NCBI RefSeq assembly: GCF_029227855.1
Contig: NZ_CP074356.1
DNA: 64,000 nucleotides
Origin: Escherichia coli
GTDB lineage: Bacteria; Pseudomonadota; Gammaproteobacteria; Enterobacterales; Enterobacteriaceae
Direction: 5' to 3' (one strand)
Part shown: piece after piece, positions 1,156 to 63,419 of the stretch
How the letters are laid out: the number at the start of each line of letters is the position of its first letter
Position numbering within the stretch: the first letter of the stretch is position 1
Translations under genes and position numbers: made by a program
Notes under the pieces: model-generated
What the model saw: the letters and a program-made list of their open reading frames with translations, nothing else
Told to the model about the DNA's origin: nothing
Databases searched by the model: none

Positions 1156-1188
1156 CAGGCCCGCCGTTCCGGTGGGCCTTGTTTTTTC
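1156..1188 (+). terminator. Intrinsic terminator after miaB
   Basis: GC-rich hairpin ggcccgcc/ggtgggcc (1158..1178) followed by ttgttttttctc. Confidence 0.6.
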
Positions 1189-1303
1189 TCTCTTTATCCC
1201 CATCTTTATCGCAATGCTTGCGCCTTTTTCCTGTGGCGTGAATAATTTCCTTATAGGCCGGTGAATGTTCAGCTTCCGGCGGCATACAGATAAGAGGAAC
1301 GGT

Positions 1304-2344
1304 TTGAACATAGACACTCGCGAAATCACCCTGGAGCCAGCAGACAATGCGCGTCTGTTGAGCCTGTGCGGCCCGTTTGATGACAACATCAAACAGCTCG
1401 AACGCCGTCTCGGCATCGAGATCAATCGCCGCGATAACCACTTTAAACTGACCGGCCGTCCGATTTGCGTCACCGCTGCGGCAGACATTCTGCGTAGCCT
1501 GTATGTCGATACAGCCCCGATGCGCGGTCAGATTCAGGATATCGAACCGGAACAGATCCACCTTGCGATTAAAGAAGCGCGGGTACTGGAGCAAAGCGCG
1601 GAGAGCGTGCCGGAGTACGGCAAAGCGGTCAATATCAAAACCAAACGCGGCGTAATCAAGCCGCGCACGCCAAACCAGGCGCAGTACATTGCCAATATTC
1701 TCGACCATGACATCACCTTCGGCGTTGGCCCGGCGGGTACGGGTAAAACCTACCTGGCAGTGGCTGCGGCAGTTGATGCCCTGGAGCGTCAGGAAATTCG
1801 CCGTATTCTGCTGACTCGTCCGGCGGTCGAAGCCGGTGAGAAACTGGGCTTCCTGCCTGGCGATTTAAGCCAGAAAGTAGACCCGTATCTGCGCCCACTG
1901 TACGACGCGCTGTTTGAAATGCTGGGCTTTGAGAAAGTCGAGAAACTGATTGAGCGCAACGTTATTGAAGTCGCGCCGCTGGCCTATATGCGTGGTCGTA
2001 CGCTGAACGACGCGTTTATCATTCTCGATGAGAGCCAGAACACCACCATCGAACAGATGAAGATGTTCCTGACCCGTATCGGTTTTAACTCAAAAGCGGT
2101 TATCACCGGCGACGTCACACAGATCGACCTGCCGCGTAATACCAAGTCAGGCTTGCGTCACGCCATCGAAGTGCTGGCTGACGTCGAAGAGATCAGCTTT
2201 AACTTCTTCCACAGCGAAGACGTGGTTCGTCACCCGGTGGTGGCGCGTATCGTTAACGCTTATGAAGCCTGGGAAGAAGCAGAACAAAAACGTAAAGCGG
2301 CGCTGGCAGCAGAACGCAAGCGCGAAGAACAGGAACAAAAATGA
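1304..2344 (+). CDS. ybeZ: PhoH-like ATPase YbeZ
   Basis: Walker A GPAGTGKT; TTG at 1304 preceded by aagagga RBS; alternative upstream ATG at 1265 gives 359 aa. Confidence 0.9.
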
Positions 2345-5339: not shown

Positions 5340-5382
5340 TCCCTTCTTATCGTGCCGGAATACATCCCGTATTTCGGCACGC

Positions 5383-5418
5383 TCACCGGATGCGGCATCA
5401 GTGCGTTATCCGGATAAC
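5383..5418. repeat. REP-like palindromic element downstream of lnt
   Basis: ccggatgcggc...gcgttatccgg resembles REP consensus (gccggatgcggcg...ttatccggc); preceded by hairpin 5352..5380. Confidence 0.4.
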
Positions 5419-5735
5419 AAAATTCCCCTATCCAACTTTGGCACATCTATTGCTTTGTTATACAAGGCAAAGCTTGAACCAGCATCAGTACAACCCGGTT
5501 GCACCACAGCAATCCACGGGTAGCACCAAAAGAGTGCATTTTAAGAATTTTGCTTCGGAATGGTGCGGCGCATCTCGCAAAAACAAACAATAAAACAGCA
5601 ATATCTTTACATTTAACCAAACTAAATGTTACCTAACAGGCACAACACTGCACAATAAAGTTGCAGACGATAACAACACAAACACTCACAACAGGTATCC
5701 ATGCGTTCTTAACGCAGAAGATAAAGGAGTTGGAT

Positions 5736-6644
5736 ATGCAATTACGTAAACCTGCCACAGCAATCCTCGCCCTGGCGCTTTCCGCAGGACTGGCACAGGC
5801 AGATGACGCCGTCCCGGCAGCAGGCAGTACGCTGGACAAAATCGCCAAAAACGGCGTGATTGTCGTCGGTCACCGTGAATCTTCAGTACCTTTCTCTTAT
5901 TACGACAATCAGCAAAAAGTGGTGGGTTACTCGCAGGATTACTCCAACGCCATTGTTGAAGCAGTGAAAAAGAAACTCAACAAACCGGACTTGCAGGTAA
6001 AACTGATTCCGATTACCTCACAAAACCGTATTCCACTGCTGCAAAACGGCACTTTCGATTTTGAATGTGGTTCTACCACCAACAACGTCGAACGCCAAAA
6101 ACAGGCGGCTTTCTCTGACACTATTTTCGTGGTCGGTACGCGCCTGCTGACCAAAAAGGGCGGCGATATCAAAGATTTCGCCGATCTGAAAGGTAAAGCC
6201 GTAGTCGTCACTTCCGGCACTACCTCTGAAGTTTTGCTCAACAAACTGAATGAAGAGCAAAAAATGAATATGCGAATTATCAGCGCCAAAGATCACGGTG
6301 ACTCTTTCCGCACCCTGGAAAGCGGTCGTGCCGTTGCCTTTATGATGGATGATGCTCTGCTGGCTGGTGAACGTGCGAAAGCGAAGAAACCAGACAACTG
6401 GGAAATCGTCGGCAAGCCGCAGTCTCAGGAAGCCTACGGTTGCATGTTGCGTAAAGACGATCCGCAGTTCAAAAAGCTGATGGATGACACTATCGCTCAG
6501 GTGCAGACCTCCGGTGAAGCGGAAAAATGGTTTGATAAATGGTTCAAAAACCCAATTCCGCCGAAAAACCTGAACATGAATTTCGAACTGTCAGACGAAA
6601 TGAAAGCACTGTTCAAAGAACCGAATGACAAGGCACTGAACTAA
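5736..6644 (+). CDS. gltI: Glutamate/aspartate periplasmic binding protein GltI
   Basis: ATG at 5736 with aaggag RBS and signal peptide MQLRKPATAILALALSAGLAQA; ORF track extends to 5661 in frame. Confidence 0.93.
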   Translation: MQLRKPATAILALALSAGLAQADDAVPAAGSTLDKIAKNGVIVVGHRESSVPFSYYDNQQKVVGYSQDYSNAIVEAVKKKLNKPDLQVKLIPITSQNRIPLLQNGTFDFECGSTTNNVERQKQAAFSDTIFVVGTRLLTKKGGDIKDFADLKGKAVVVTSGTTSEVLLNKLNEEQKMNMRIISAKDHGDSFRTLESGRAVAFMMDDALLAGERAKAKKPDNWEIVGKPQSQEAYGCMLRKDDPQFKKLMDDTIAQVQTSGEAEKWFDKWFKNPIPPKNLNMNFELSDEMKALFKEPNDKALN

Positions 6645-6800
6645 TTACAAGAACCAGGGGCGGAAATTCCAGCCCTCTCGATTGTTACGTAGCACGGACA
6701 GACTATACGCCTGATGGTCGTTCCCCATCGGGCCTGAAAACCGCAATACGCTGGGTAACAATCTTCGAGGGTAGCAGTTAACGCTGCTACCCTCTTTTTT
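6640..6800 (+). ncRNA. sroC: SroC-like sRNA processed from the gltI-gltJ spacer (GcvB sponge)
   Basis: Position at gltI 3' end/gltI-gltJ spacer ending at a strong intrinsic terminator matches the known location of SroC; 5' boundary approximate. Confidence 0.5.
6767..6800 (+). terminator. Intra-operon intrinsic terminator between gltI and gltJ
   Basis: Perfect 11-bp stem gagggtagcag/ctgctaccctc with loop ttaacg followed by tttttt. Confidence 0.8.
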
Positions 6801-6813
6801 CTGGAGTAGATTT

Positions 6814-10006: not shown

Positions 10007-10011
10007 TCACT

Positions 10012-10036
10012 CGCCGGATGACATCACGCCATCCGG
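10012..10036. terminator. Hairpin between convergent rihA and ybeL (REP-like, possibly bidirectional terminator)
   Basis: gccggatg / catccggc 8-bp stem with 9-nt loop in the 44-bp gap. Confidence 0.45.
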
Positions 10037-10050
10037 CACCACTCATTTCA

Positions 10051-13364: not shown

Positions 13365-13946
13365 GTGCGATATCTGGCAACATTGTTGTTATCTCTGGCG
13401 GTGTTAATCACCGCCGGGTGTGGCTGGCATCTGCGTGATACCACGCAGGTTCCTTCCACTATGAAGGTCATGATCCTGGACTCAGGCGATCCGAACGGGC
13501 CATTAAGCCGTGCGGTGCGTAACCAGTTACGTCTGAATGGTGTCGAGTTGCTTGATAAAGAAACCACGCGTAAGGACGTTCCATCCCTGCGTTTGGGTAA
13601 AGTGAGCATCGCGAAAGATACCGCATCGGTATTCCGTAACGGTCAAACAGCAGAGTATCAGATGATCATGACGGTCAATGCGACCGTGTTGATCCCCGGC
13701 CGTGACATCTACCCGATTAGCGCCAAAGTCTTCCGTTCGTTCTTCGATAACCCGCAAATGGCGTTAGCGAAAGATAACGAACAAGACATGATCGTAAAAG
13801 AGATGTACGACCGTGCTGCCGAACAGCTGATTCGTAAGCTGCCAAGCATCCGTGCTGCGGATATTCGTTCCGACGAAGAACAGACGTCGACCACAACGGA
13901 TACTCCGGCAACGCCTGCACGCGTCTCTACCACGCTGGGTAACTGA
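13365..13946 (+). CDS. lptE: LPS assembly lipoprotein LptE (RlpB)
   Basis: GTG start with gggagga RBS; lipobox LITAGC; 193 aa. Confidence 0.93.
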
Positions 13947-15620: not shown

Positions 15621-15643
15621 TACCTGTCGTTACGGAGGGCATG

Positions 15644-16255
15644 ATGCGACTGTGGTTAATTCGTCATGGCGAAACGCAAGCGAATATCGATGGTCTGTAC
15701 AGCGGTCATGCTCCCACACCCCTGACTGCGCGCGGTATTGAGCAAGCGCAAAATCTGCATACGCTGCTACATGGTGTTTCCTTTGACCTGGTTTTATGCA
15801 GTGAACTGGAACGGGCACAGCATACCGCGCGACGGGTTCTCAGTGATCGCCAGCTTCCCGTGCAAATCATCCCTGAACTCAACGAAATGTTTTTTGGCGA
15901 CTGGGAGATGCGACATCATCGCGACCTCATGCAAGAAGATGCCGAAAACTATAGCGCGTGGTGCAATGACTGGCAGCATGCTATCCCCACGAACGGTGAA
16001 GGATTTCAGGCATTTTCACAACGAGTGGAACGGTTTATCGCAAGGCTTAGTGAATTTCAGCACTATCAGAATATTTTAGTCGTCAGCCATCAGGGTGTAC
16101 TGAGTCTGTTAATCGCCCGTTTAATTGGTATGCCTGCCGAAGCTATGTGGCATTTTCGCGTTGACCAGGGGTGTTGGAGCGCCATTGATATCAACCAAAA
16201 ATTCGCGACGCTACGCGTCCTCAATAGCCGTGCCATCGGGGTCGAGAATGCATGA
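15644..16255 (+). CDS. cobC: Histidine phosphatase family protein (alpha-ribazole phosphatase CobC/PhpB)
   Basis: RHGET catalytic motif; 203 aa from second Met. Confidence 0.9.
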   Translation: MRLWLIRHGETQANIDGLYSGHAPTPLTARGIEQAQNLHTLLHGVSFDLVLCSELERAQHTARRVLSDRQLPVQIIPELNEMFFGDWEMRHHRDLMQEDAENYSAWCNDWQHAIPTNGEGFQAFSQRVERFIARLSEFQHYQNILVVSHQGVLSLLIARLIGMPAEAMWHFRVDQGCWSAIDINQKFATLRVLNSRAIGVENA

Positions 16256-16496: not shown

Positions 16497-16832
<336 letters not shown>

Positions 16833-16835
16833 TGC

Positions 16836-17303
16836 GTGAAGCTGCAACTTGTCGCCGTGGGAACGAAAATGCCGGACTGGGTACAAACCGGTTTTACCGA
16901 GTACCTGCGTCGTTTTCCGAAAGATATGCCCTTCGAGCTGATTGAAATTCCGGCCGGAAAACGCGGCAAGAATGCGGACATCAAGCGCATACTCGACAAA
17001 GAGGGTGAGCAGATGTTGGCGGCCGCAGGCAAAAACCGCATTGTCACCCTCGATATTCCAGGCAAGCCCTGGGATACGCCGCAGTTAGCCGCTGAGCTGG
17101 AACGCTGGAAGCTGGATGGTCGCGACGTCAGTCTACTGATTGGCGGGCCTGAAGGGTTGTCGCCTGCCTGTAAAGCGGCGGCGGAGCAGAGCTGGTCGCT
17201 GTCGGCGCTTACCCTCCCCCATCCGTTGGTTCGCGTGCTGGTCGCAGAGAGTCTGTACCGGGCGTGGAGCATCACCACCAACCATCCTTATCACCGTGAG
17301 TGA
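16836..17303 (+). CDS. rlmH: 23S rRNA m3Psi1915 methyltransferase RlmH
   Basis: 155 aa SPOUT-family ORF, GTG start, immediately after rsfS. Confidence 0.93.
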
Positions 17304-23273: not shown

Positions 23274-23915
23274 TTGTATCAGGATAAAATTCTTGTCCGC
23301 CAGCTCGGTCTTCAGCCTTACGAGCCAATTTCCCAGGCTATGCATGAATTCACCGATACCCGCGATGATAGTACCCTTGATGAAATCTGGCTGGTCGAGC
23401 ACTATCCGGTATTCACCCAAGGGCAGGCAGGAAAAGCGGAGCACATTTTAATGCCGGGTGATATTCCGGTGATTCAGAGCGATCGCGGTGGGCAGGTGAC
23501 TTATCACGGGCCGGGGCAACAGGTGATGTATGTGTTGCTTAACCTGAAACGCCGTAAACTCGGTGTGCGTGAACTGGTGACCTTGCTTGAGCAAACAGTG
23601 GTGAATACCCTGGCTGAACTGGGTATAGAAGCGCATCCTCGGGCTGACGCGCCTGGTGTCTATGTCGGGGAAAAGAAAATTTGCTCACTGGGTTTACGTA
23701 TTCGACGCGGTTGTTCATTCCACGGTCTGGCATTAAACGTCAATATGGATCTTTCACCATTTTTACGTATTAATCCTTGTGGGTATGCCGGAATGGAAAT
23801 GGCTAAAATATCACAATGGAAACCCGAAGCGACGACTAATAATATTGCACCGCGTTTACTGGAAAATATTTTAGCGCTACTAAACAATCCTGACTTCGAA
23901 TATATTACCGCTTAA
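23274..23915 (+). CDS. lipB: Octanoyltransferase LipB
   Basis: 213 aa, TTG start, N-terminus [12 protein letters not shown]. Confidence 0.93.
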
Positions 23916-24174: not shown

Positions 24175-25128
24175 GTGGATAGTAATAATCAAATTGAAAC
24201 CTGTTTAAGCAGAAAGTCGTCAGAAGGTAAACCACAAATATTTACAACCTTACGAAATATTGATCTTAACCTTCTGACTATTTTTGAAGCTGTATATGTA
24301 CATAAAGGGATCGTTAATGCAGCGAAAGTGCTTAATCTGACACCCTCGGCAATCAGTCAGTCTATTCAGAAACTGCGCGTTATATTCCCTGACCCATTGT
24401 TTATTCGCAAAGGCCAGGGTGTCACTCCTACCGCATTTGCGATGCATCTACATGAGTATATCAGTCAGGGCCTTGAGTCCATTCTTGGCGCGCTGGATAT
24501 CGAAGGAAGCTATGATAAGCAACGAACGATAACTATTGCGACCACCCCCTCGGTCGGAGCCCTGGTCCTTCCTGTCATCTATCGGGCGATTAAATCTCAC
24601 TATCCGCAGCTTTTACTGCGCAACCCCCCCATCAGCGACGCGGAAAACCAACTCAGTCAGTTTCAAACCGATCTCATCATCGATAACATGTTTTGCACCA
24701 ATCGTACGGTGCAACATCATGTTCTGTTCACCGACAATATGGTGTTAATTTTCCGCGAGGGAAATCCACTACTCTCTTTAGAAGATGACAGGGAGACTAT
24801 CGACAACGCTGCGCATATACTCCTGTTACCGGAAGGGCAAAATTTCAGCGGTCTGCGGCAGAGAGTTCAAGAGATGTTTCCGGACCGGCAAATCAGTTTC
24901 ACCAGCTACAACATTTTGACAATCGCTGCACTGGTTGCCAACAGTGACATGTTAGCGATTATTCCCAGCCGTTTTTATAACCTGTTTAGCCGTTGCTGGC
25001 CGCTGGAAAAACTGCCTTTTCCGTCCTTAAATGATGAGCAAATAGATTTCTCTATCCACTACAACAAATTCAGCCTGCGTGATCCCATCCTGCACGGGGT
25101 AATAGATGTTATCCGTAATGCATTTTGA
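24175..25128 (+). CDS. ybeF: LysR-family transcriptional regulator YbeF
   Basis: 317 aa; N-terminal LysR HTH; GTG start; AT-rich gene with AT-rich flanks. Confidence 0.88.
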   Translation: MDSNNQIETCLSRKSSEGKPQIFTTLRNIDLNLLTIFEAVYVHKGIVNAAKVLNLTPSAISQSIQKLRVIFPDPLFIRKGQGVTPTAFAMHLHEYISQGLESILGALDIEGSYDKQRTITIATTPSVGALVLPVIYRAIKSHYPQLLLRNPPISDAENQLSQFQTDLIIDNMFCTNRTVQHHVLFTDNMVLIFREGNPLLSLEDDRETIDNAAHILLLPEGQNFSGLRQRVQEMFPDRQISFTSYNILTIAALVANSDMLAIIPSRFYNLFSRCWPLEKLPFPSLNDEQIDFSIHYNKFSLRDPILHGVIDVIRNAF

Positions 25129-26735: not shown

Positions 26736-27530
26736 TCATAATAATTGCGGCGGCGCAAAGCGACGGTTGTTTAAGACGGGCAGTTGCGCGCGCACCTGAC
26801 GCACACGTTCGGGCGTCACTTCCGCCATAATGAGTGCAGGCATTTCTGACGCTGCCGCAATGGTGACGCCAAAGGGATCTATAATCCGGCTTTGCCCGAT
26901 ATTTTTGTTCCCGCACTCCCCCGCCGCCACCATATAACAGGTGGTATCCAGCGCACGAGCGGCAAGCAACGTTGACCAGTGATGCTCTTTGAGCGGCCCA
27001 CGAACCCAGGCGGCAGGAAGTACCAGGATTTCAGCTCCCTGTAATGCCTGTGCCAGCGCCAGCTCTGGAAAGCGTAAGTCATAACAGGTCATCAGACCGA
27101 CCTTCATCCCTTCCACCTCCAGTAACGGAGCTATTTCATTACCAGCATCAACATGGCGTGATTCCTGAATGGCAAATGCATCATAGAGATGCAGTTTGGC
27201 ATAACGGGCGACGATGTTTCCTGCCTGTAGCGCCACCAGCATATTCCATGCGCGCCCCGGCGTTGAAGGAACATGAATCGTCAGAATTGTCGTCATCATG
27301 TTACGTTTACTTTCTCGCCGTAAACGTCCGAGGAATTCGCCTTCCAGCAGCTGTGCTGATTTAACCGATAGATCTGCATCATGATCATCACGCGCCAACA
27401 ATGCTTCCGGCAGGACAAACAGCGAAACGTCGTTTTCCGCCGCCTGCGCCATCAACGAGGCACAAATCTCAGCGTTCTTTTCCCACACAGATGTAACAGC
27501 AAACTGTCCTGCAGCAACCAGCATTGCCAC
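26736..27530 (-). CDS. ybeM: Nit-family CN-hydrolase YbeM (deaminated glutathione amidase-like), intact
   Basis: 264 aa uninterrupted ORF with conserved Cys (CYDLRFPE) and Glu/Lys of the nitrilase triad. Confidence 0.85.
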
Positions 27531-27616: not shown

Positions 27617-28000
27617 GTGTTACAACTTCTTTTAGCAGTTTTTATTGGCGGTGGTACGGGAAGCGTGGCGAGATGGCTGTTAAGTATGCGATTTAACCCG
27701 CTGCATCAGGCGATTCCGTTGGGGACGCTGGCTGCAAACCTGATTGGGGCATTCATCATAGGAATGGGATTCGCCTGGTTTAGCAGGATGACGAACATTG
27801 ATCCAGTGTGGAAAGTATTAATCACCACCGGATTTTGTGGCGGTCTAACAACCTTCTCAACATTTTCGGCAGAAGTAGTGTTTTTGTTACAAGAGGGCCG
27901 CTTAGGCTGGGCGTTACTGAACGTTTTCGTCAACCTTTTGGGGTCTTTTGCCATGACCGCACTGGCTTTCTGGCTGTTTTCCGCCTCAACCGCACACTAA
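27617..28000 (+). CDS. crcB: Fluoride channel CrcB/FluC
   Basis: 127 aa, four TM helices, GTG start. Confidence 0.92.
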
Positions 28001-28005
28001 AGACC

Positions 28006-28036
28006 AAAAAAAACCCGCTGATTAAGCGGGTTTTGA
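28006..28036. terminator. Bidirectional intrinsic terminator between crcB and cspE
   Basis: aaaaaaacccgct-gatta-agcgggtttt. Confidence 0.8.
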
Positions 28037-28053
28037 ATTCTTGCTGACGTATC

Positions 28054-28263
28054 TTACAGAGCGATTACGTTTGCAGCAGAAGGGCCTTTGGCACCGTTAG
28101 TGATTTCGAACTCTACGCGCTGACCTTCAGCAAGAGTTTTAAAACCATTAGTCTGGATTGCAGAGAAGTGTACAAACACGTCTTTGCTGCCGTCTTCCGG
28201 AGTAATGAAACCGAATCCTTTGGACTCATTAAACCACTTAACGTTACCTTTAATCTTAGACAT
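28054..28263 (-). CDS. cspE: Cold-shock-domain protein CspE
   Basis: 69 aa from [20 protein letters not shown]; RNP1/RNP2 motifs. Confidence 0.95.
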
Positions 28264-28437
28264 CAAAATTACCTTTACATGAAAAATAGACACAAATGCT
28301 GTGTCGGTTACCAGTACACCAATTGTGGTACGCTTTGTCCAGTGCAACTTTACTAAAAAGTGATAAAAGTCGCGTTATTTTTGATGTTAATTATTTTACC
28401 CATTGATTTTAAAGAGTTTACTAAAATTTCATTTGTC

Positions 28438-28998
28438 TCAAAACTGAAAGCGCATCCAGGCAAAGTACACATTGCCATTGTTATAGGTACCCGGAATGTA
28501 GGTCATCTGAAAAGTCACTGGACCATAACCCACAGAGGCCAATGGCAGTAGAACCGGGAGAGGGATGTAATTCCAGTTATCGCGTGCCGTTACGCCAGCG
28601 GTGAATCCCAGTCCTAAATGAAAATTTTCATCCGCCAGCGGTCGCCAGGTACTTTCCCATCCGTATCCGGCAATCGGTTCCCATTTGTTCCACGAGTCCT
28701 TAAATGCCATGGCATACAGGCCATGCCAGTTTCCTTTTTCATCCCAACGCGACTGACCAAAACCGCCACCCCACAGTCGCTCGTTATAGCGATCGGTTTT
28801 TTCTTTGTCGTAAGCGAAACGAGCATGCCAGGTGATGGCAGGAATATATAAATCATAATGTTCAGGCTGTTGCCAGGTTTGTGTAATATTTTCTCCAAAC
28901 GTTGTCATCCACTCATCTGCGTTAGCAAAAACTTTACCAACGCTGATTAACTGAATAAAAACAAAGGAAAAGATAGCGACATATTTACTCACGTTCAT
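28438..28998 (-). CDS. pagP: Lipid A palmitoyltransferase PagP
   Basis: 186 aa outer-membrane beta-barrel with signal peptide [14 protein letters not shown]. Confidence 0.93.
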
Positions 28999-33320: not shown

Positions 33321-33699
33321 TGTTTTCCTTGCGGGTTGTCCCGAGCCTCTTTGACGAATGTAATTAAAATGTTGAATCAAAATACATAGATATTAAATAT
33401 AATCGTGGCAAATTTTATTCATTAAATCAATTAAATCACTTAAACCTGCGGGTCATTTCGTAATTACATTAATTAAAAAACTTAAAACCATTAAATAAAT
33501 AAAAAACCACTAACTCTATGTGAAATAAATCAAAATTTCACGCTGCAATACTCCTTAGGATGTATAGCGAAAGGAGAAAAAGATATACCTCGATCGCCCC
33601 CCTTTCTCCCAAGTGAAAATAAAAGGTTATCAGTTTGCAACATCGAACAACATTTGTTGCAAATCGATAACAACATGCACCTTCAGGATACTATTTATT

Positions 33700-34758
33700 A
33701 TGTTCGGCAATGATATTTTCACCCGTGTAAAACGTTCAGAAAATAAAAAAATGGCGGAAATCGCCCAATTCCTGCATGAAAATGATTTGAGCGTTGACAC
33801 CACAGTCGAAGTATTTATTACCGTAACCCGCGATGAAAAGCTTATCGCGTGCGGTGGAATTGCCGGAAATATTATTAAATGCGTTGCTATCAGTGAATCC
33901 GTTCGCGGTGAAGGACTGGCGCTGACATTAGCCACCGAGCTAATTAACCTCGCCTATGAGCGGCACAGCACGCATCTGTTTATTTATACCAAAACCGAAT
34001 ACGAGGCGCTGTTCCGCCAGTGCGGTTTTTCCACGCTGACCAGTGTACCCGGCGTGATGGTGCTGATGGAAAACAGCGCCACGCGACTGAAACGCTATGC
34101 CGAATCGCTGAAAAAATTTCGTCATCCAGGGAACAAGATTGGCTGCATTGTGATGAACGCCAATCCCTTTACGAATGGTCACCGTTATCTGATTCAACAG
34201 GCTGCAGCACAGTGCGACTGGTTGCATCTGTTTTTAGTTAAAGAAGATTCTTCACGCTTTCCCTATGAAGACCGGCTGGATCTGGTGTTAAAAGGCACCG
34301 CCGATATTCCACGCCTGACTGTGCATCGCGGCTCCGAATACATCATCTCCCGCGCTACGTTCCCTTGCTACTTCATTAAAGAACAGAGCGTCATTAACCA
34401 TTGTTACACCGAAATTGATCTGAAGATTTTCCGTCAGTACCTCGCTCCCGCGCTGGGTGTAACTCACCGCTTTGTCGGTACTGAACCCTTTTGTCGCGTT
34501 ACCGCCCAGTACAACCAGGATATGCGCTACTGGCTGGAAACGCCGACTATCTCCGCACCGCCCATCGAACTGGTTGAAATTGAGCGGCTGCGTTACCAGG
34601 AGATGCCGATATCCGCTTCCCGGGTACGTCAACTGCTGGCGAAAAACGATCTCACGGCTATCGCGCCGCTGGTCCCTGCAGTCACGCTGCATTATTTGCA
34701 GAACCTGCTTGAGCACTCCCGCCAGGACGCGGCAGCTCGTCAAAAGACCCCCGCATGA
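33700..34758 (+). CDS. citC: [Citrate lyase] ligase CitC
   Basis: 352 aa from MFGNDIF; start choice uncertain, ORF open from 33613. Confidence 0.88.
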   Translation: MFGNDIFTRVKRSENKKMAEIAQFLHENDLSVDTTVEVFITVTRDEKLIACGGIAGNIIKCVAISESVRGEGLALTLATELINLAYERHSTHLFIYTKTEYEALFRQCGFSTLTSVPGVMVLMENSATRLKRYAESLKKFRHPGNKIGCIVMNANPFTNGHRYLIQQAAAQCDWLHLFLVKEDSSRFPYEDRLDLVLKGTADIPRLTVHRGSEYIISRATFPCYFIKEQSVINHCYTEIDLKIFRQYLAPALGVTHRFVGTEPFCRVTAQYNQDMRYWLETPTISAPPIELVEIERLRYQEMPISASRVRQLLAKNDLTAIAPLVPAVTLHYLQNLLEHSRQDAAARQKTPA

Positions 34759-41537: not shown

Positions 41538-42246
41538 GTGCACAGAAAACCCCCAGCTAGGCTGGGGGTTCCGGAAAGCTTTCAGCTTTGAGCCTGTTAT
41601 TAAAACCCCTTTTGATTTGTTAAAACACCTTGCGGTCTGGCAACTGCAAGTGTCAAACAAGAAATCAAAAGGGGGTCCCAATGGGGAACGAAAAGAGCTT
41701 AGCGCACACCCGATGGAACTGTAAATATCACATAGTTTTTGCGCCAAAATACCGAAGACAGGTGTTCTACAGAGAGAAGCGTAGAGCAATAGGCAGTATT
41801 TTGAGAAAGCTGTGTGAGTGGAAAAGCGTACGGATTCTGGAAGCTGAATGCTGTGCAGATCATATCCATATGCTTGTGGAGATCCCGCCTAAAATGAGCG
41901 TATCCGGGTTTATGGGATATCTGAAAGGGAAAAGCAGTCTGATGCTTTACGAGCAGTTTGGTGATTTGAAATTCAAATACAGGAACAGGGAGTTCTGGTG
42001 CAGAGGGTACTACGTCGATACAGTGGGTAAGAACACGGCGAAGATACAGGATTACACAAAGCACCAGCTTGAAGAGGATAAAATGGGAGAGCAGTTATCG
42101 ATTCCCTATCCGGGCAGCCCGTTTACGGGCCGTAAGTAACGAAGTTGGATGCAAATGTCAGATCGTGTGCGCCTGTTAGGGCGCGGCTGGTAAGAGAGCC
42201 TTATAGGCGCATTTGAAAAACCTCCGGCTATGCCGGAGGATATTTA
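41538..42246 (+). mobile_element. IS200-family insertion sequence (IS200/IS605 family), boundaries approximate
   Basis: Single Y1 HUH transposase ORF with left-end hairpin (41549..41569), 69-nt stem sequestering the tnpA RBS (41606..41674) and right-end hairpin (42221..42239); about 709 bp, no terminal inverted repeats. Confidence 0.6.
41681..42139 (+). CDS. tnpA: IS200 transposase TnpA (HUH single-strand transposase)
   Basis: 152 aa; HuH motif (DHIHMLV) and C-terminal Tyr region; aaaggggg RBS. Confidence 0.93.
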   Translation: MGNEKSLAHTRWNCKYHIVFAPKYRRQVFYREKRRAIGSILRKLCEWKSVRILEAECCADHIHMLVEIPPKMSVSGFMGYLKGKSSLMLYEQFGDLKFKYRNREFWCRGYYVDTVGKNTAKIQDYTKHQLEEDKMGEQLSIPYPGSPFTGRK

Positions 42247-42299
42247 TTTTTGGGTATGTTTATCTGCGACACTCGCAGTACCGACGACATGGAGTAAAA

Positions 42300-42942: not shown

Positions 42943-43065
42943 CGCCTGGTTTTATTTATTTTCCAGCTCAATAGCAAATTCAGATCAAATCAGCCTCGCA
43001 AATCATAGATTCATAACCAATAATGTGCTGTTATGTATACATGCAAAAACAAGGAGAGAATGCTT

Positions 43066-45914: not shown

Positions 45915-46285
45915 CTATACTTCCTCCGTGTTTTCGATGAGATGTAAGGTAACCAATTTTTGCCGATTCGGCTAATGCGTTTCCATTATCAAATCGATAA
46001 GTTTTACCTTACAACCTTCGTAAGACAACTTTGTGAACTTTGCACCGCCAGCGGCGATAAAAAGTAAAATGGCCCCCTTTCCAGGTGACCGTGTAATCTG
46101 AACTACCCTTTGGTATCTTCAGCGCCTGCCTGCAGGCTGAGGTGTTGCCCTTACAAATGCAACAACGACATGGATTACAACACCCTCATAAACAAAGGGC
46201 AATCACCTGATCTAAGCTCTTACCTATGACAGTGATAGGTTATGCCTTTTACCCGACTTTTGCACTGACTGAAAAGGACAAATTA

Positions 46286-47032
46286 ATGTTAAAAAAGATA
46301 CTTTTACTGGCTCTGCTTCCTGCAATCGCCTTCGCAGAGGAACTTCCTGATCCAGTAAAAGCGATTGAAAAACAGGGTATTACGATCATCAAAACATTCG
46401 ATGCTCCCGGAGGAATGAAAGGTTATCTCGGAAAGTATCAGGATATGGGCGTCACCATCTACCTGACTCCAGATGGTAAGCACGCTATCTCCGGTTACAT
46501 GTACAACGAGAAAGGTGAAAACCTGAGTAACACACTTATCGAAAAAGAAATTTACGCACCAGCCGGACGCGAAATGTGGCAACGGATGGAACAATCCCAC
46601 TGGCTCCTCGACGGTAAAAAAGATGCGCCGGTCATTGTCTACGTCTTCGCCGATCCTTTCTGCCCATATTGTAAACAGTTCTGGCAGCAGGCTCGTCCGT
46701 GGGTAGATTCTGGCAAAGTGCAATTAAGAACATTGTTGGTTGGCGTTATCAAGCCAGAAAGCCCGGCGACAGCAGCGGCAATTCTTGCCGCCAAAGATCC
46801 CGCAAAAACCTGGCAAGAATATGAAGCCTCTGGTGGCAAGCTTAAGCTAAACGTGCCTGCAAACGTAAGTACAGAGCAAATGAAAGTGTTAAGCGATAAC
46901 GAGAAACTGATGGACGATCTGGGGGCAAATGTCACGCCAGCTATCTATTACATGAGTAAGGAAAATACACTGCAACAGGCCGTGGGGTTGCCCGATCAGA
47001 AAACGCTTAATATCATTATGGGGAATAAATAA
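46286..47032 (+). CDS. dsbG: Periplasmic thiol:disulfide oxidoreductase DsbG
   Basis: 248 aa from [17 protein letters not shown]; CPYC active site; in-frame upstream ATG at 46226. Confidence 0.92.
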
Positions 47033-48289: not shown

Positions 48290-49510
48290 ATGTCTATTTA
48301 TAAAATCCCGCTTCCACTGAATATTCTGGAAGCTGCAAAAGAACGTATTACCTGGACACTTAACACCCTACCCCGTGTCTGCGTTTCTTTTTCGGGTGGT
48401 AAAGATTCCGGATTAATGCTGCATCTGACCGCCGAACTTGCCCGACAAATGGGCAAAAAAATTTGTGTTTTATTTATCGACTGGGAAGCTCAGTTCTCTT
48501 GCACCATTAACTATGTTCAGTCCCTGCGCGAGTTGTACACCGATGTCATCGAAGAGTTTTACTGGGTTGCGCTCCCGCTTACAACGCAAAATTCCCTATC
48601 ACAATACCAACCCGAATGGCAGTGCTGGGAACCTGATGTCGAATGGGTACGTCAGCCCCCGCAAGATGCGATAACCGATCCTGACTTTTTCTCCTTTTAC
48701 CAGCCTGGCATGACCTTCGAACAATTTGTGCGTGAGTTTGCCGAATGGTTTTCGCAAAAACGTCCGGCGGCGATGATGATCGGCATCCGTGCGGATGAGT
48801 CCTACAACCGTTTTGTCGCCATCGCCAGTTTAAATAAACAACGTTTTGCCGATGATAAGCCCTGGACTACTGCCGCACCAGGCGGTCATAGCTGGTACAT
48901 ATACCCCATCTACGACTGGAAAGTCGCTGATATCTGGACCTGGTATGCTAGCCATCAACGCCTCTGTAACCCACTGTATAATATAATGTATCAGGCAGGC
49001 GTTCCTCTACGTCATATGCGAATTTGCGAACCTTTTGGTCCGGAACAACGGCAAGGATTATGGCTCTATCACGTTATCGAACCGGATCGCTGGGCTGCTA
49101 TGTGCGCACGAGTCAGCGGGGTAAAAAGTGGCGGCATTTACGCCGGACATGACAACCATTTTTATGGTCATCGGAAAATCCTCAAGCCCGAACATTTAGA
49201 CTGGCAGGAGTATGCATTATTGCTACTCAACAGCATGCCGGAGAAAACAGCTGAGCATTATCGCAATAAAATCGCCATTTATTTGCACTGGTATCAGAAA
49301 AAAGGCATCGAGGTTCCACAAACCCAGCAAGGGGACATTGGCGCGAAAGATATCCCCTCCTGGCGGCGAATATGCAAAGTTTTACTCAATAACGATTACT
49401 GGTGTCGGGCATTATCATTTAGCCCGACCAAAGCGAAGAACTATCAGCGTTATAACGAACGAATAAAAGGAAAACGTCAGGAATGGGGGATACTATGCAA
49501 CAACGATTAA
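48290..49510 (+). CDS. ybdN: PP-loop ATP pyrophosphatase of the PAPS-reductase superfamily, YbdN
   Basis: 406 aa; PP-loop SGGKDS (in VSFSGGKDSGLM) near N-terminus; 3' end overlaps ybdM. Confidence 0.9.
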   Translation: MSIYKIPLPLNILEAAKERITWTLNTLPRVCVSFSGGKDSGLMLHLTAELARQMGKKICVLFIDWEAQFSCTINYVQSLRELYTDVIEEFYWVALPLTTQNSLSQYQPEWQCWEPDVEWVRQPPQDAITDPDFFSFYQPGMTFEQFVREFAEWFSQKRPAAMMIGIRADESYNRFVAIASLNKQRFADDKPWTTAAPGGHSWYIYPIYDWKVADIWTWYASHQRLCNPLYNIMYQAGVPLRHMRICEPFGPEQRQGLWLYHVIEPDRWAAMCARVSGVKSGGIYAGHDNHFYGHRKILKPEHLDWQEYALLLLNSMPEKTAEHYRNKIAIYLHWYQKKGIEVPQTQQGDIGAKDIPSWRRICKVLLNNDYWCRALSFSPTKAKNYQRYNERIKGKRQEWGILCNND

Positions 49511-60093: not shown

Positions 60094-61050
60094 GTGAGAC
60101 TCGCCTCGCTCTACCGCAACGCCCTTCTATTAACAGGACTTTTGCTTTCAGGAATAGTCGCAGTTCAGGCCGCCGACTGGCCGCGTCAGATTACTGACAG
60201 CCGGGGCACTCATACCCTGGAAAGCCAGCCGCAGCGTATTGTTTCCACCAGCGTCACCCTGACTGGCTCACTGCTGGCGATTGATGCTCCGGTGATTGCC
60301 AGCGGCGCGACCACGCCGAATAACCGCGTCGCGGATGACCAGGGCTTTTTACGCCAGTGGAGCAAGGTGGCGAAAGAACGCAAACTGCAACGGCTCTATA
60401 TCGGCGAACCGAGCGCCGAAGCCGTTGCCGCGCAAATGCCGGATTTGATTTTAATTAGCGCAACCGGCGGGGATTCGGCGCTGGCGCTGTATGATCAGCT
60501 TTCCACCATCGCCCCGACATTAATCATCAATTACGACGACAAAAGCTGGCAGTCGCTGTTAACGCAACTTGGCGAAATTACCGGGCATGAGAAACAAGCG
60601 GCAGAGCGGATTGCACAGTTTGATAAGCAACTGGCAGCGGCGAAAGAGCAAATCAAATTACCGCCGCAGCCGGTCACTGCCATTGTCTATACCGCCGCTG
60701 CACACAGTGCCAATCTCTGGACGCCGGAATCAGCACAAGGGCAGATGCTGGAACAACTCGGCTTTACGTTGGCGAAATTGCCCGCAGGGTTAAACGCCAG
60801 CCAAAGCCAGGGCAAACGCCATGACATCATTCAGCTTGGTGGTGAAAATCTGGCTGCAGGGTTAAATGGCGAGTCACTATTCCTGTTCGCCGGTGATCAG
60901 AAAGATGCCGATGCTATTTATGCCAATCCACTGCTCGCGCACCTGCCCGCAGTACAAAACAAGCAGGTTTATGCGCTGGGAACCGAGACGTTCCGACTGG
61001 ATTACTACAGCGCCATGCAAGTGCTGGAACGACTTAAGGCGCTGTTTTAA
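60094..61050 (+). CDS. fepB: Ferric enterobactin periplasmic binding protein FepB
   Basis: 318 aa, GTG start, signal peptide. Confidence 0.94.
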
Positions 61051-62402: not shown

Positions 62403-62414
62403 ATGGAAGTTCGT

Positions 62415-63419
62415 ATGTCTGGTTCTGTTGCCGTGACACGCGCCATTGCCGTGCCCGGATTGCTGTTATTACTGATTATCGCGACGGCATTAAGCCTGCT
62501 CATTGGGGCAAAATCACTCCCCGCTTCCGTAGTGCTGGAGGCGCTCTCCGGCACCTGCCAGAGCGCCGACTGCACCATTGTGCTCGACGCCCGTCTGCCG
62601 CGCACCCTTGCCGGTTTACTGGCAGGCGGTGCGCTTGGGCTTGCCGGGGCGCTGATGCAAACCCTCACCCGAAACCCACTTGCCGACCCCGGCTTGCTTG
62701 GCGTGAACGCCGGAGCCAGCTTTGCCATTGTGCTGGGTGCGGCGCTGTTTGGTTACTCTTCCGCACAGGAACAACTGGCGATGGCCTTCGCCGGGGCGCT
62801 GGTGGCCTCATTGATTGTTGCCTTTACCGGCAGCCAGGGCGGCGGGCAGTTAAGTCCGGTGCGTTTAACCCTGGCGGGCGTGGCACTGGCGGCGGTGCTG
62901 GAAGGGCTGACCAGCGGCATCGCCCTGCTTAATCCTGACGTCTACGATCAGTTGCGTTTCTGGCAAGCCGGTTCGCTGGATATTCGCAATCTACATACCT
63001 TAAAAGTGGTGCTGATCCCGGTGCTGATCGCCGGAGCAACCGCGCTATTACTGAGCCGCGCGCTGAACAGTTTAAGCCTCGGCAGTGACACCGCGACGGC
63101 GCTGGGTAGTCGCGTGGCGCGCACACAGTTGATTGGTCTGCTGGCGATTACCGTGCTTTGTGGTAGTGCGACGGCGGTAGTTGGCCCGATTGCCTTTATT
63201 GGCCTGATGATGCCGCATATGGCACGTTGGTTGGTGGGTGCCGATCATCGCTGGTCGCTGCCCGTCACGCTGCTTGCTACCCCTGCCCTGCTGCTGTTTG
63301 CCGATATCATCGGGCGGGTGATTGTGCCCGGCGAACTGCGCGTTTCTGTAGTCAGTGCCTTTATTGGCGCACCGGTGCTGATCTTCCTCGTGCGACGTAA
63401 AACGCGAGGTGGCGCATGA
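62415..63419 (+). CDS. fepD: Ferric enterobactin ABC transporter permease FepD
   Basis: 334 aa from MSGSVAVTRAI (in-frame ATG also at 62403); FecCD-family permease. Confidence 0.93.
   Translation: MSGSVAVTRAIAVPGLLLLLIIATALSLLIGAKSLPASVVLEALSGTCQSADCTIVLDARLPRTLAGLLAGGALGLAGALMQTLTRNPLADPGLLGVNAGASFAIVLGAALFGYSSAQEQLAMAFAGALVASLIVAFTGSQGGGQLSPVRLTLAGVALAAVLEGLTSGIALLNPDVYDQLRFWQAGSLDIRNLHTLKVVLIPVLIAGATALLLSRALNSLSLGSDTATALGSRVARTQLIGLLAITVLCGSATAVVGPIAFIGLMMPHMARWLVGADHRWSLPVTLLATPALLLFADIIGRVIVPGELRVSVVSAFIGAPVLIFLVRRKTRGGA

Follow-up and report, generated by a model that had tools for sequence, protein, structure and literature searches.

Does the Escherichia coli gene ybeZ begin at an ATG at position 1265 or at a TTG lying thirteen codons downstream, at position 1304? 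And, if the weaker codon is the one used, is this a peculiarity of the gene, or do such starts characterize the chromosomal neighborhood in which it lies? These questions are addressed here for the window--that is, for the whole 64,000-nucleotide stretch of DNA analyzed--which spans the E. coli chromosome from miaB to fepG, with the gene order miaB-ybeZ-ybeY-corC-lnt-gltIJKL-rihA-ybeL-leuS-lptE-holA-nadD-cobC-rsfS-rlmH-mrdAB-rlpA-dacA-ybeD-lipB-ybeF-lipA, followed by the cit genes, by ahpCF-dsbG and by the ent/fep genes. PGAP coordinates were taken 1:1 from positions 3509834-3573833 of NZ_AP045174.1 (strain JNEC-KY178), from which the window differs by 4 SNPs and 0 indels. For the 64 annotated coding sequences that start within the window, the start codon was extracted together with every in-frame alternative, and a second annotation, the independently curated K-12 record NC_000913.3, was compared. 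The part of the window containing ybeZ (positions 1000-2500) is matched, by megablast, in 5,424 of 5,426 complete E. coli genomes. All of the features located below lie on the plus strand.

As annotated by PGAP, ybeZ (1304..2344) encodes a PhoH family protein of 346 residues and has the TTG at 1304..1306 as its initiation codon. The ATG at 1265..1267, from which the gene was annotated in K-12 in 2006, is in the same frame, 13 codons away and with no intervening stop, and would yield a 359-residue form beginning MFSFRR (MFSFRRHTDKRNG...). The TTG is preceded by the Shine-Dalgarno (SD) sequence AAGAGGA (1292..1298), whose predicted anti-SD duplex (-7.2 kcal/mol) reaches the start codon as scored, the SD core leaving a spacer of 5 nt; the ATG, in contrast, has a weak and misplaced SD (-4.8 kcal/mol, with a gap of 1). 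The encoded protein matches the Pfam PhoH profile PF02562 (E = 1.2e-98) over residues 118-321 of the 346-residue form and over positions 2-205 of the profile's 205; since about 118 residues precede the domain, however, its boundaries do not separate the two starts. Synteny over miaB-ybeZ-ybeY-corC-lnt is present.

The choice between these codons turns out to have been made experimentally in K-12. In Table S2 of Nakahigashi et al. 2016 (PMC4909307), ybeZ appears in row 7 with a new TTG start located 39 nt downstream of the 2006 ATG. In that study tetracycline-inhibited ribosome profiling (TetRP), which sampled K-12 in standard growth, yielded read values in three samples of 79.0, 79.3 and 45.2 at the TTG versus 0, 0 and 0 at the old ATG, and the table's 'N'-peptide found' column contains, for ybeZ, the entry 'new annotation', which denotes the TTG form. 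The start had, moreover, already been moved from the ATG in the 2014 record U00096.3 (Table S3, PMC4909307). Thus the K-12 re-annotation from U00096.2 to U00096.3 involved the identical choice between the positions corresponding here to 1265 and 1304, with signal found only at the new site (PMC4909307). TetRP was done on K-12 rather than on the strain studied here, but there is no sequence difference at the site: between -93 and +60 relative to the ybeZ start the K-12 sequence and that of the window are the same, and therefore the TetRP and N-terminal peptide data apply directly to the window. A full-text literature search for ybeZ in connection with TTG gave no match.

The earlier note on this DNA, which was made from the sequence alone, had placed the start at 1304 on the strength of the SD, had proposed N-terminal proteomics and initiation-site profiling as checks, and had named data supporting the upstream ATG as what would overturn the assignment. 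Both kinds of data are in fact already published for ybeZ and both favor the TTG at 1304 over the ATG at 1265, for which the profiling reads are zero throughout. PGAP, the curated K-12 record, TetRP, the N-terminal peptide, the SD and conservation all agree on the TTG, so that the question of the ybeZ start is one that has been resolved and is known, having been both re-annotated and validated in K-12.

Conservation was examined by scanning one genome per species, which gave 80 Enterobacterales ybeZ loci, 73 of which align to residue 1. (The seven Morganellaceae loci appear to use a GTG located 5-6 codons upstream.) The codon homologous to the ybeZ start is TTG in 73 of 73 orthologues. The SD at positions -11 to -6, which has the form A-[G/A]-A-G-G-A, is 77-99% conserved in these orthologues at a fixed spacing, and upstream of -12 conservation falls to 30-70% and lacks any 3-nt periodicity. 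Within the 80-locus set, an ATG 13 codons upstream is confined to the loci of Escherichia and to some of those of Citrobacter and Kluyvera. In-frame stops occur 5-7 codons upstream in Pseudocitrobacter, Pluralibacter, Pseudescherichia, Superficieibacter, Pantoea, Erwinia, Serratia and others; in Citrobacter FP75 (L012) a 1-nt indel puts the upstream ATG out of frame; and in Citrobacter R56 (L016) an ATA occupies its position.

These observations bear upon two alternatives. According to the first, ybeZ truly starts at the ATG at 1265, giving the 359-residue protein, the TTG having entered the annotation as an artefact carried over from K-12. The ATG does open the longest reading frame, was the annotated start in 2006 and is the commonest of start codons; yet no initiating ribosomes were seen there in the same three samples that gave strong signal at the TTG, the N-terminal peptide fits the TTG form, the codon is without a properly spaced SD, the 13-codon extension is broken in other loci by stops, by a frameshift or by the ATA, and the sequence upstream of the TTG shows no wobble periodicity. 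This alternative is thus effectively refuted and has next to no probability of being correct.

According to the second alternative, both codons are used, so that YbeZ exists as two N-terminal proteoforms, perhaps in a condition-dependent manner (in heat shock, for example). In E. coli the two codons do share a frame free of stops, and ybeZ is reported to be heat-shock regulated, while TetRP covers standard growth only. In-frame alternative initiation has, furthermore, been documented genome-wide in E. coli (10.1101/520783). Against this, the ybeZ frame showed a single initiation signal in standard growth, none of the three TetRP samples giving any at the ATG; the ATG is conserved no further than close relatives, joint conservation of both starts and of the codons between them being absent among the Enterobacterales loci; and the SD of the ATG is both weak and mis-spaced. 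Dual initiation is accordingly regarded as very unlikely, though marginally less so than exclusive use of the ATG. The same conclusion follows from a comparison with the 'alternative proteome' revealed by Ribo-RET (Meydan et al. 2019): ybeZ resembles its members in having two in-frame candidates 13 codons apart, but differs from them in that only one candidate has initiating ribosomes and only one is conserved.

The sequence surrounding the upstream ATG suggests what its place in the transcript might be. An intrinsic terminator detected by a terminator scan after miaB (1157..1189), with a 10-bp stem containing 8 GC pairs and followed by a T-run, is strong enough that ybeZ should need a promoter of its own, presumably within 1190-1300. 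A block within this interval, GGCGTGAATAATTTC (1236..1250), recurs across the Enterobacteriaceae (in Escherichia, Citrobacter, Kluyvera, Enterobacter, Lelliottia and Pluralibacter) and, judging from its sequence and this conservation, is likely an extended -10 element. Upstream of it, at 1198-1205, a sigma-32-like -10 sequence, CCCCATCT, can be read, which may function as a sigma-32 element; ybeZ belongs to the heat-shock regulon. A strict sigma-70 promoter scan of 1100-1400 returned no site. If the promoter at 1236-1250, with its conserved TGnATAATT element, fires, then the transcript would begin near 1254-1257, and AUG 1265 would then lie no more than about 10 nt from the 5' end, looped out by a small hairpin of variable sequence (GCCGG/CCGGC). 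A structured leader acting as an RNA thermometer was also considered and was rejected: shuffled sequences are predicted to fold more stably than does 1212-1340 itself (z = +1.71), and the ybeZ leader has no Rfam match, so that nothing points to a thermometer or riboswitch.

Besides ybeZ, seven genes in the window start at a codon other than ATG: lptE, rsfS, rlmH, lipB, ybeF, crcB and fepB. None of these has an in-frame ATG, GTG or TTG between its start and the preceding in-frame stop, and the next downstream ATG either loses 11-23 conserved residues or is absent within 30 codons. Hence these non-ATG starts would be forced by the geometry of the reading frames, each being the first possible start after the stop. 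When ybeZ is included, all eight non-ATG starts have an SD, with duplex energies from -4.1 to -10.3 kcal/mol and with gaps of 0-8 nt as scored. The GTG of lptE (13365..13367) has the SD GGGAGGA (-10.3 kcal/mol), and the lipoprotein signal peptide (…LITAGC) begins at this codon. The TTG of rsfS (16515..16517) has the SD AGGGGGA (-9.4 kcal/mol), and no competing start lies within 30 codons of it. The GTG of rlmH (16836..16838) lies 4 nt past the rsfS stop, and the SD that serves it falls within the 3' end of rsfS. (This arrangement is the classic layout of translational coupling.) The remaining three GTG starts, those of ybeF (24175..24177), crcB (27617..27619) and fepB (60094..60096), have no upstream in-frame start and are the same in K-12; the fepB signal peptide begins at the annotated codon.

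For lipB the TTG (23274..23276) is indicated not only by the geometry of the reading frame and by its SD but also by published data: the codon is a Ribo-RET initiation site with the associated peptide MYQDKILVR (TRAINSPOTTER supplement). A TTG start has been reported for Shewanella lipB as well (PMC4398509). None of ybeZ, rsfS, rlmH, lptE, crcB and fepB joins lipB among the matches listed from the TRAINSPOTTER N-terminomics supplements. The predicted starts of lptE, rsfS, rlmH, ybeF, crcB and fepB rest on reading-frame geometry, SD sequences and conservation.

How far these codons are conserved was assessed in eight other genera, whose lptE-to-crcB regions were located by way of RodA homologues and whose homologous start codons were then compared. 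The rsfS TTG, the rlmH GTG, the lptE GTG and the lipB TTG are each kept in all eight. For rlmH a stop lies 1-2 codons upstream in seven of the genera and 9 codons upstream in the eighth (L086); for lipB an additional ATG, which gene callers prefer, lies 3 codons upstream in four of the eight. The crcB start, in the five genera having an orthologue, is GTG in one (L089) and an aligned ATG in three, and in L086 the position reads CTT and is followed by an ATG. The ybeF GTG is not conserved, the single full-length orthologue found having ATG. Among genes starting with ATG that served as controls, seven had a first codon that could be aligned in every locus or almost every one; of these leuS, holA, mrdA, dacA and lipA keep their ATG, as do rlpA and ybeD when one-codon alignment offsets are allowed; nadD was left out inasmuch as its N-terminus aligned too poorly to judge. 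Taken together with ybeZ, five of the eight genes--ybeZ, rsfS and lipB with TTG, rlmH and lptE with GTG--thus keep the same weak codon across the Enterobacterales.

A different sort of ambiguity was claimed for cobC, citC, dsbG, ybdM and fepD, namely that they have closely spaced alternative in-frame starts, and all of these alternatives are indeed present in the sequence. In cobC a tandem ATG-ATG (15641..15646) offers starts at 15641 and 15644, of which the second is annotated; the two have one SD in common, GGAGGG, which lies 1 nt from the first and 4 nt from the second and so favors the second, and the 203-residue K-12 form corresponds to the second. In citC (33613..33753) the candidates are a GTG at 33613, the annotated ATG at 33700 and an ATG at 33751, only that at 33700 having any SD; the K-12 protein record for citC has reached version.4, which points to past revisions of its start. 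In dsbG (46226..46288) an ATG at 46226 and a GTG at 46232 precede the annotated ATG at 46286, which is the same in K-12, which alone has an SD (AAAGGAC, -5.3 kcal/mol, gap 6) and at which the signal peptide begins. In fepD (62403..62417) the ATG at 62415, annotated both here and in K-12, rather than that at 62403, is preceded by the SD-like sequence GGAAG. For ybdM (49483..49497), in contrast, comparison of the SD sequences leaves the start ambiguous, since the SD of the unannotated second ATG at 49495 (UGGGGGA, -8.4 kcal/mol, gap 4) surpasses that of the annotated ATG at 49483 (-5.6 kcal/mol, gap 10) in both strength and spacing. Judged from sequence features, then, the cobC, citC, dsbG and fepD candidates appear to resolve to the SD-proximal codon, while ybdM stays ambiguous.

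Neither dsbG, ybdM, fepD, citC, cobC nor crcB is among the re-mapped genes in the PMC4909307 supplements, which do give pagP (crcA) as having a 'multiple' start, at an ATG and at a GTG at +6. The K-12 protein records of ybeZ, rsfS, lipB, ybeF, citC, citE, dsbG and ahpF carry version numbers above.1, from which it follows that these sequences have been revised. (Such revisions fit the earlier note's impression that starts here are hard to call.)

What remains is whether the window is unusual as a whole. Among its 64 genes, 56 start with ATG, five (lptE, rlmH, ybeF, crcB and fepB) with GTG and three (ybeZ, rsfS and lipB) with TTG; there is no further non-ATG gene, and the same eight non-ATG starts occur in NC_000913.3. 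The eight genes that the earlier note had named as starting at TTG or GTG are exactly these, and the N-termini it proposed, which it had offered as best guesses, all coincide with the PGAP and curated K-12 starts for the 13 genes that it named, the curated K-12 lengths being equal to the PGAP lengths in every case. Its description of such starts as 'frequent' does not survive, however: of E. coli genes, about 83% start with AUG, 14% with GUG and 3% with UUG (Hecht et al.), and the window's non-ATG share, 8/64 or 12.5%, is at or below the genome-wide average of about 17% (binomial P(>=8) = 0.89). Its description of starts as ambiguous holds insofar as alternatives do exist, but this is the generic condition of bacterial genes rather than a property of the region: counting from the start listing, 22 of the 64 genes have an upstream in-frame ATG, GTG or TTG before the first stop, and most of the 64 have another in-frame candidate within 30 codons downstream.

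It might nevertheless be supposed that non-ATG or ambiguous starts are concentrated in the window for some biological reason, as a regional or operon-level property. Three TTG starts among 64 genes are nominally above the 3% genome rate, and three of the eight non-ATG genes (ybeZ, rsfS and rlmH) are ribosome-related; yet three TTG starts against 1.9 expected is unexceptional (binomial P(>=3) = 0.31), the non-ATG total falls short of expectation rather than exceeding it, and the number of genes with upstream candidates marks the ambiguity as generic. Regional enrichment is rejected by the binomial test and is about as improbable as an ATG start for ybeZ.

Ordinary SD-led initiation at canonical near-cognate UUG and GUG codons, already represented in current annotation, is thus very probably the correct explanation for all of these starts. 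For ybeZ, ribosomes initiate at UUG 1304, placed by the AAGAGGA SD 5 nt upstream, to produce the 346-residue PhoH family protein; AUG 1265 sits within the 5' untranslated leader, where it lacks a usable SD and goes unused, and we infer that it is silent under all conditions. The eight genes conform to what is expected of canonical UUG/GUG initiation, in that each has a UUG or GUG with an SD upstream at the 5' end of a conserved frame. Initiating-ribosome footprints are available from the literature for ybeZ (by TetRP) and for lipB (by Ribo-RET), as are N-terminal peptides for both. What exceeds the requirements of this class is the conservation of the weak codon itself across genera in five of the genes.

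This conservation invites comparison with the autoregulation of infC, which encodes IF3 and which likewise has a conserved non-AUG start, an AUU, and a link to the translation machinery; ybeZ, rsfS and rlmH are similarly ribosome-associated. An infC-type start, however, lies outside AUG, GUG and UUG, whereas all eight starts considered here are UUG or GUG. These are canonical start codons, against which IF3 discriminates far less than it does against AUU, and we know of no feedback loop for the UUG and GUG starts described here. The ybeZ case therefore fits the criteria neither of dual-initiation proteoforms nor of infC-type regulation of a start.

Selection upon the ybeZ start codon can nonetheless be gauged against synonymous positions in the same genes. 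Within amino-acid-invariant columns of the 73 ybeZ genes, none of the 71 fourfold-degenerate sites is invariant and 63 of the 71 show all four bases, from which it follows that synonymous positions are saturated. The first base of the start codon, on the other hand, is never A or G in the 73 loci, though either would still give a start codon. Given this saturation, the ybeZ TTG itself looks to be selected. UUG and GUG initiate at 10-100% of the efficiency of AUG (Hecht et al.). That five of the eight genes keep the same weak codon across the Enterobacterales suggests that a weak codon combined with a good SD may be a selected setting of expression level, one that limits expression, in keeping with how weak start codons are generally viewed. 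It is further conceivable, though rather unlikely, that the UUG and GUG codons of ybeZ, rsfS and rlmH constitute a hard-wired regulatory device that would make the synthesis of these ribosome-quality-control proteins depend on the condition of the initiation machinery (IF3, initiator tRNA or the quality of 30S subunits), instead of just setting a low constitutive level.

Purifying selection on the identity of start codons is a known, general phenomenon, of which the conserved weak codons described here are clean examples; they imply no new principle, and only the depth to which the weak codons themselves are conserved is, to a mild degree, new. The main import of the analysis concerns annotation quality: the N-termini proposed in the earlier note can be trusted. 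For the biology of the Enterobacterales, it indicates that the identity of the start codon in ybeZ, rsfS, rlmH, lptE and lipB has been kept far beyond neutral expectation.

The conservation of weak start codons across several genes in the window is well above the neutral expectation. The TTG start of ybeZ (1304) is kept in 73/73 of those Enterobacterales ybeZ loci (among L005-L084) whose alignment reaches residue 1, and the starts of rsfS (TTG), rlmH (GTG), lptE (GTG) and lipB (TTG) are each kept in 8/8 of the lptE-to-crcB regions from other genera (L085-L092). The GTG starts of crcB and ybeF are not conserved in the compared loci; in the Morganellaceae ybeZ loci (n = 7) the apparent start is instead a GTG 5-6 codons upstream.

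Upstream of ybeZ, a sigma-32-like -10 element (CCCCATCT) lies at 1198-1205, and an extended -10-like block, GGCGTGAATAATTTC, is kept across Enterobacteriaceae (1236-1250). This block is followed by a hairpin of variable sequence (GCCGG, 1258-1262; CCGGC, 1276-1280), within the loop of which lies the unused ATG at 1265.

The second ATG of ybdM (49495) has the Shine-Dalgarno (SD) sequence UGGGGGA (-8.4 kcal/mol, gap 4), whereas the SD of the annotated ATG (49483) is weaker and worse-spaced (-5.6 kcal/mol, gap 10); the annotation may be four codons too long at its start. For pagP (crcA), tetracycline-inhibited ribosome profiling of K-12 gave 'multiple' initiation signals, namely the annotated ATG and a GTG 6 nt downstream (PMC4909307), and both candidate codons occur in the window (28992-28998, - strand).

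At the Rfam gathering threshold, matches in the window include the sroC sRNA in the gltI 3' region (6640-6802, + strand), a cspA-type thermoregulator spanning the cspE 5' UTR and CDS (28006-28364, - strand), and STnc70 between ahpC and dsbG (46059-46152, - strand); no fluoride riboswitch match was found 5' of crcB at that threshold. Features of K-12 MG1655 that are missing from the window are IS5D at the lnt-gltI junction (5340-5735), the island of ybeQ-ybeR-djlB-ybeT-ybeU-djlC-hscC at the ybeL-rihA junction (10007-10050), and ybdR at the uspG-yldA junction (42943-43065); ybeM (deaminated glutathione amidase; 26736-27524), a pseudogene in K-12, is intact in the window.

An inserted copy of IS200C (about 41538-42247) separates the rnk CDS (42300) from the rnk leader (Rfam RF01771; 41434-41542); the insert carries an STnc490-type 5' UTR (41548-41671) and tnpA (41681-42139). 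Among 5,426 complete E. coli genomes, IS200C occupies this site in one, that of strain JNEC-KY178 (NZ_AP045174.1), which is 4 SNPs from the window. The insertion may uncouple rnk from its own leader.

At the rsfS-rlmH junction, the rlmH GTG (16836) lies 3 nt from the rsfS stop (TAA, 16830-16832) and its SD (CTGGAG) sits within the rsfS coding end, a layout common to 8 other genera; this conserved combination of a short gap and an internal SD suggests that translation of rlmH is coupled to that of rsfS.
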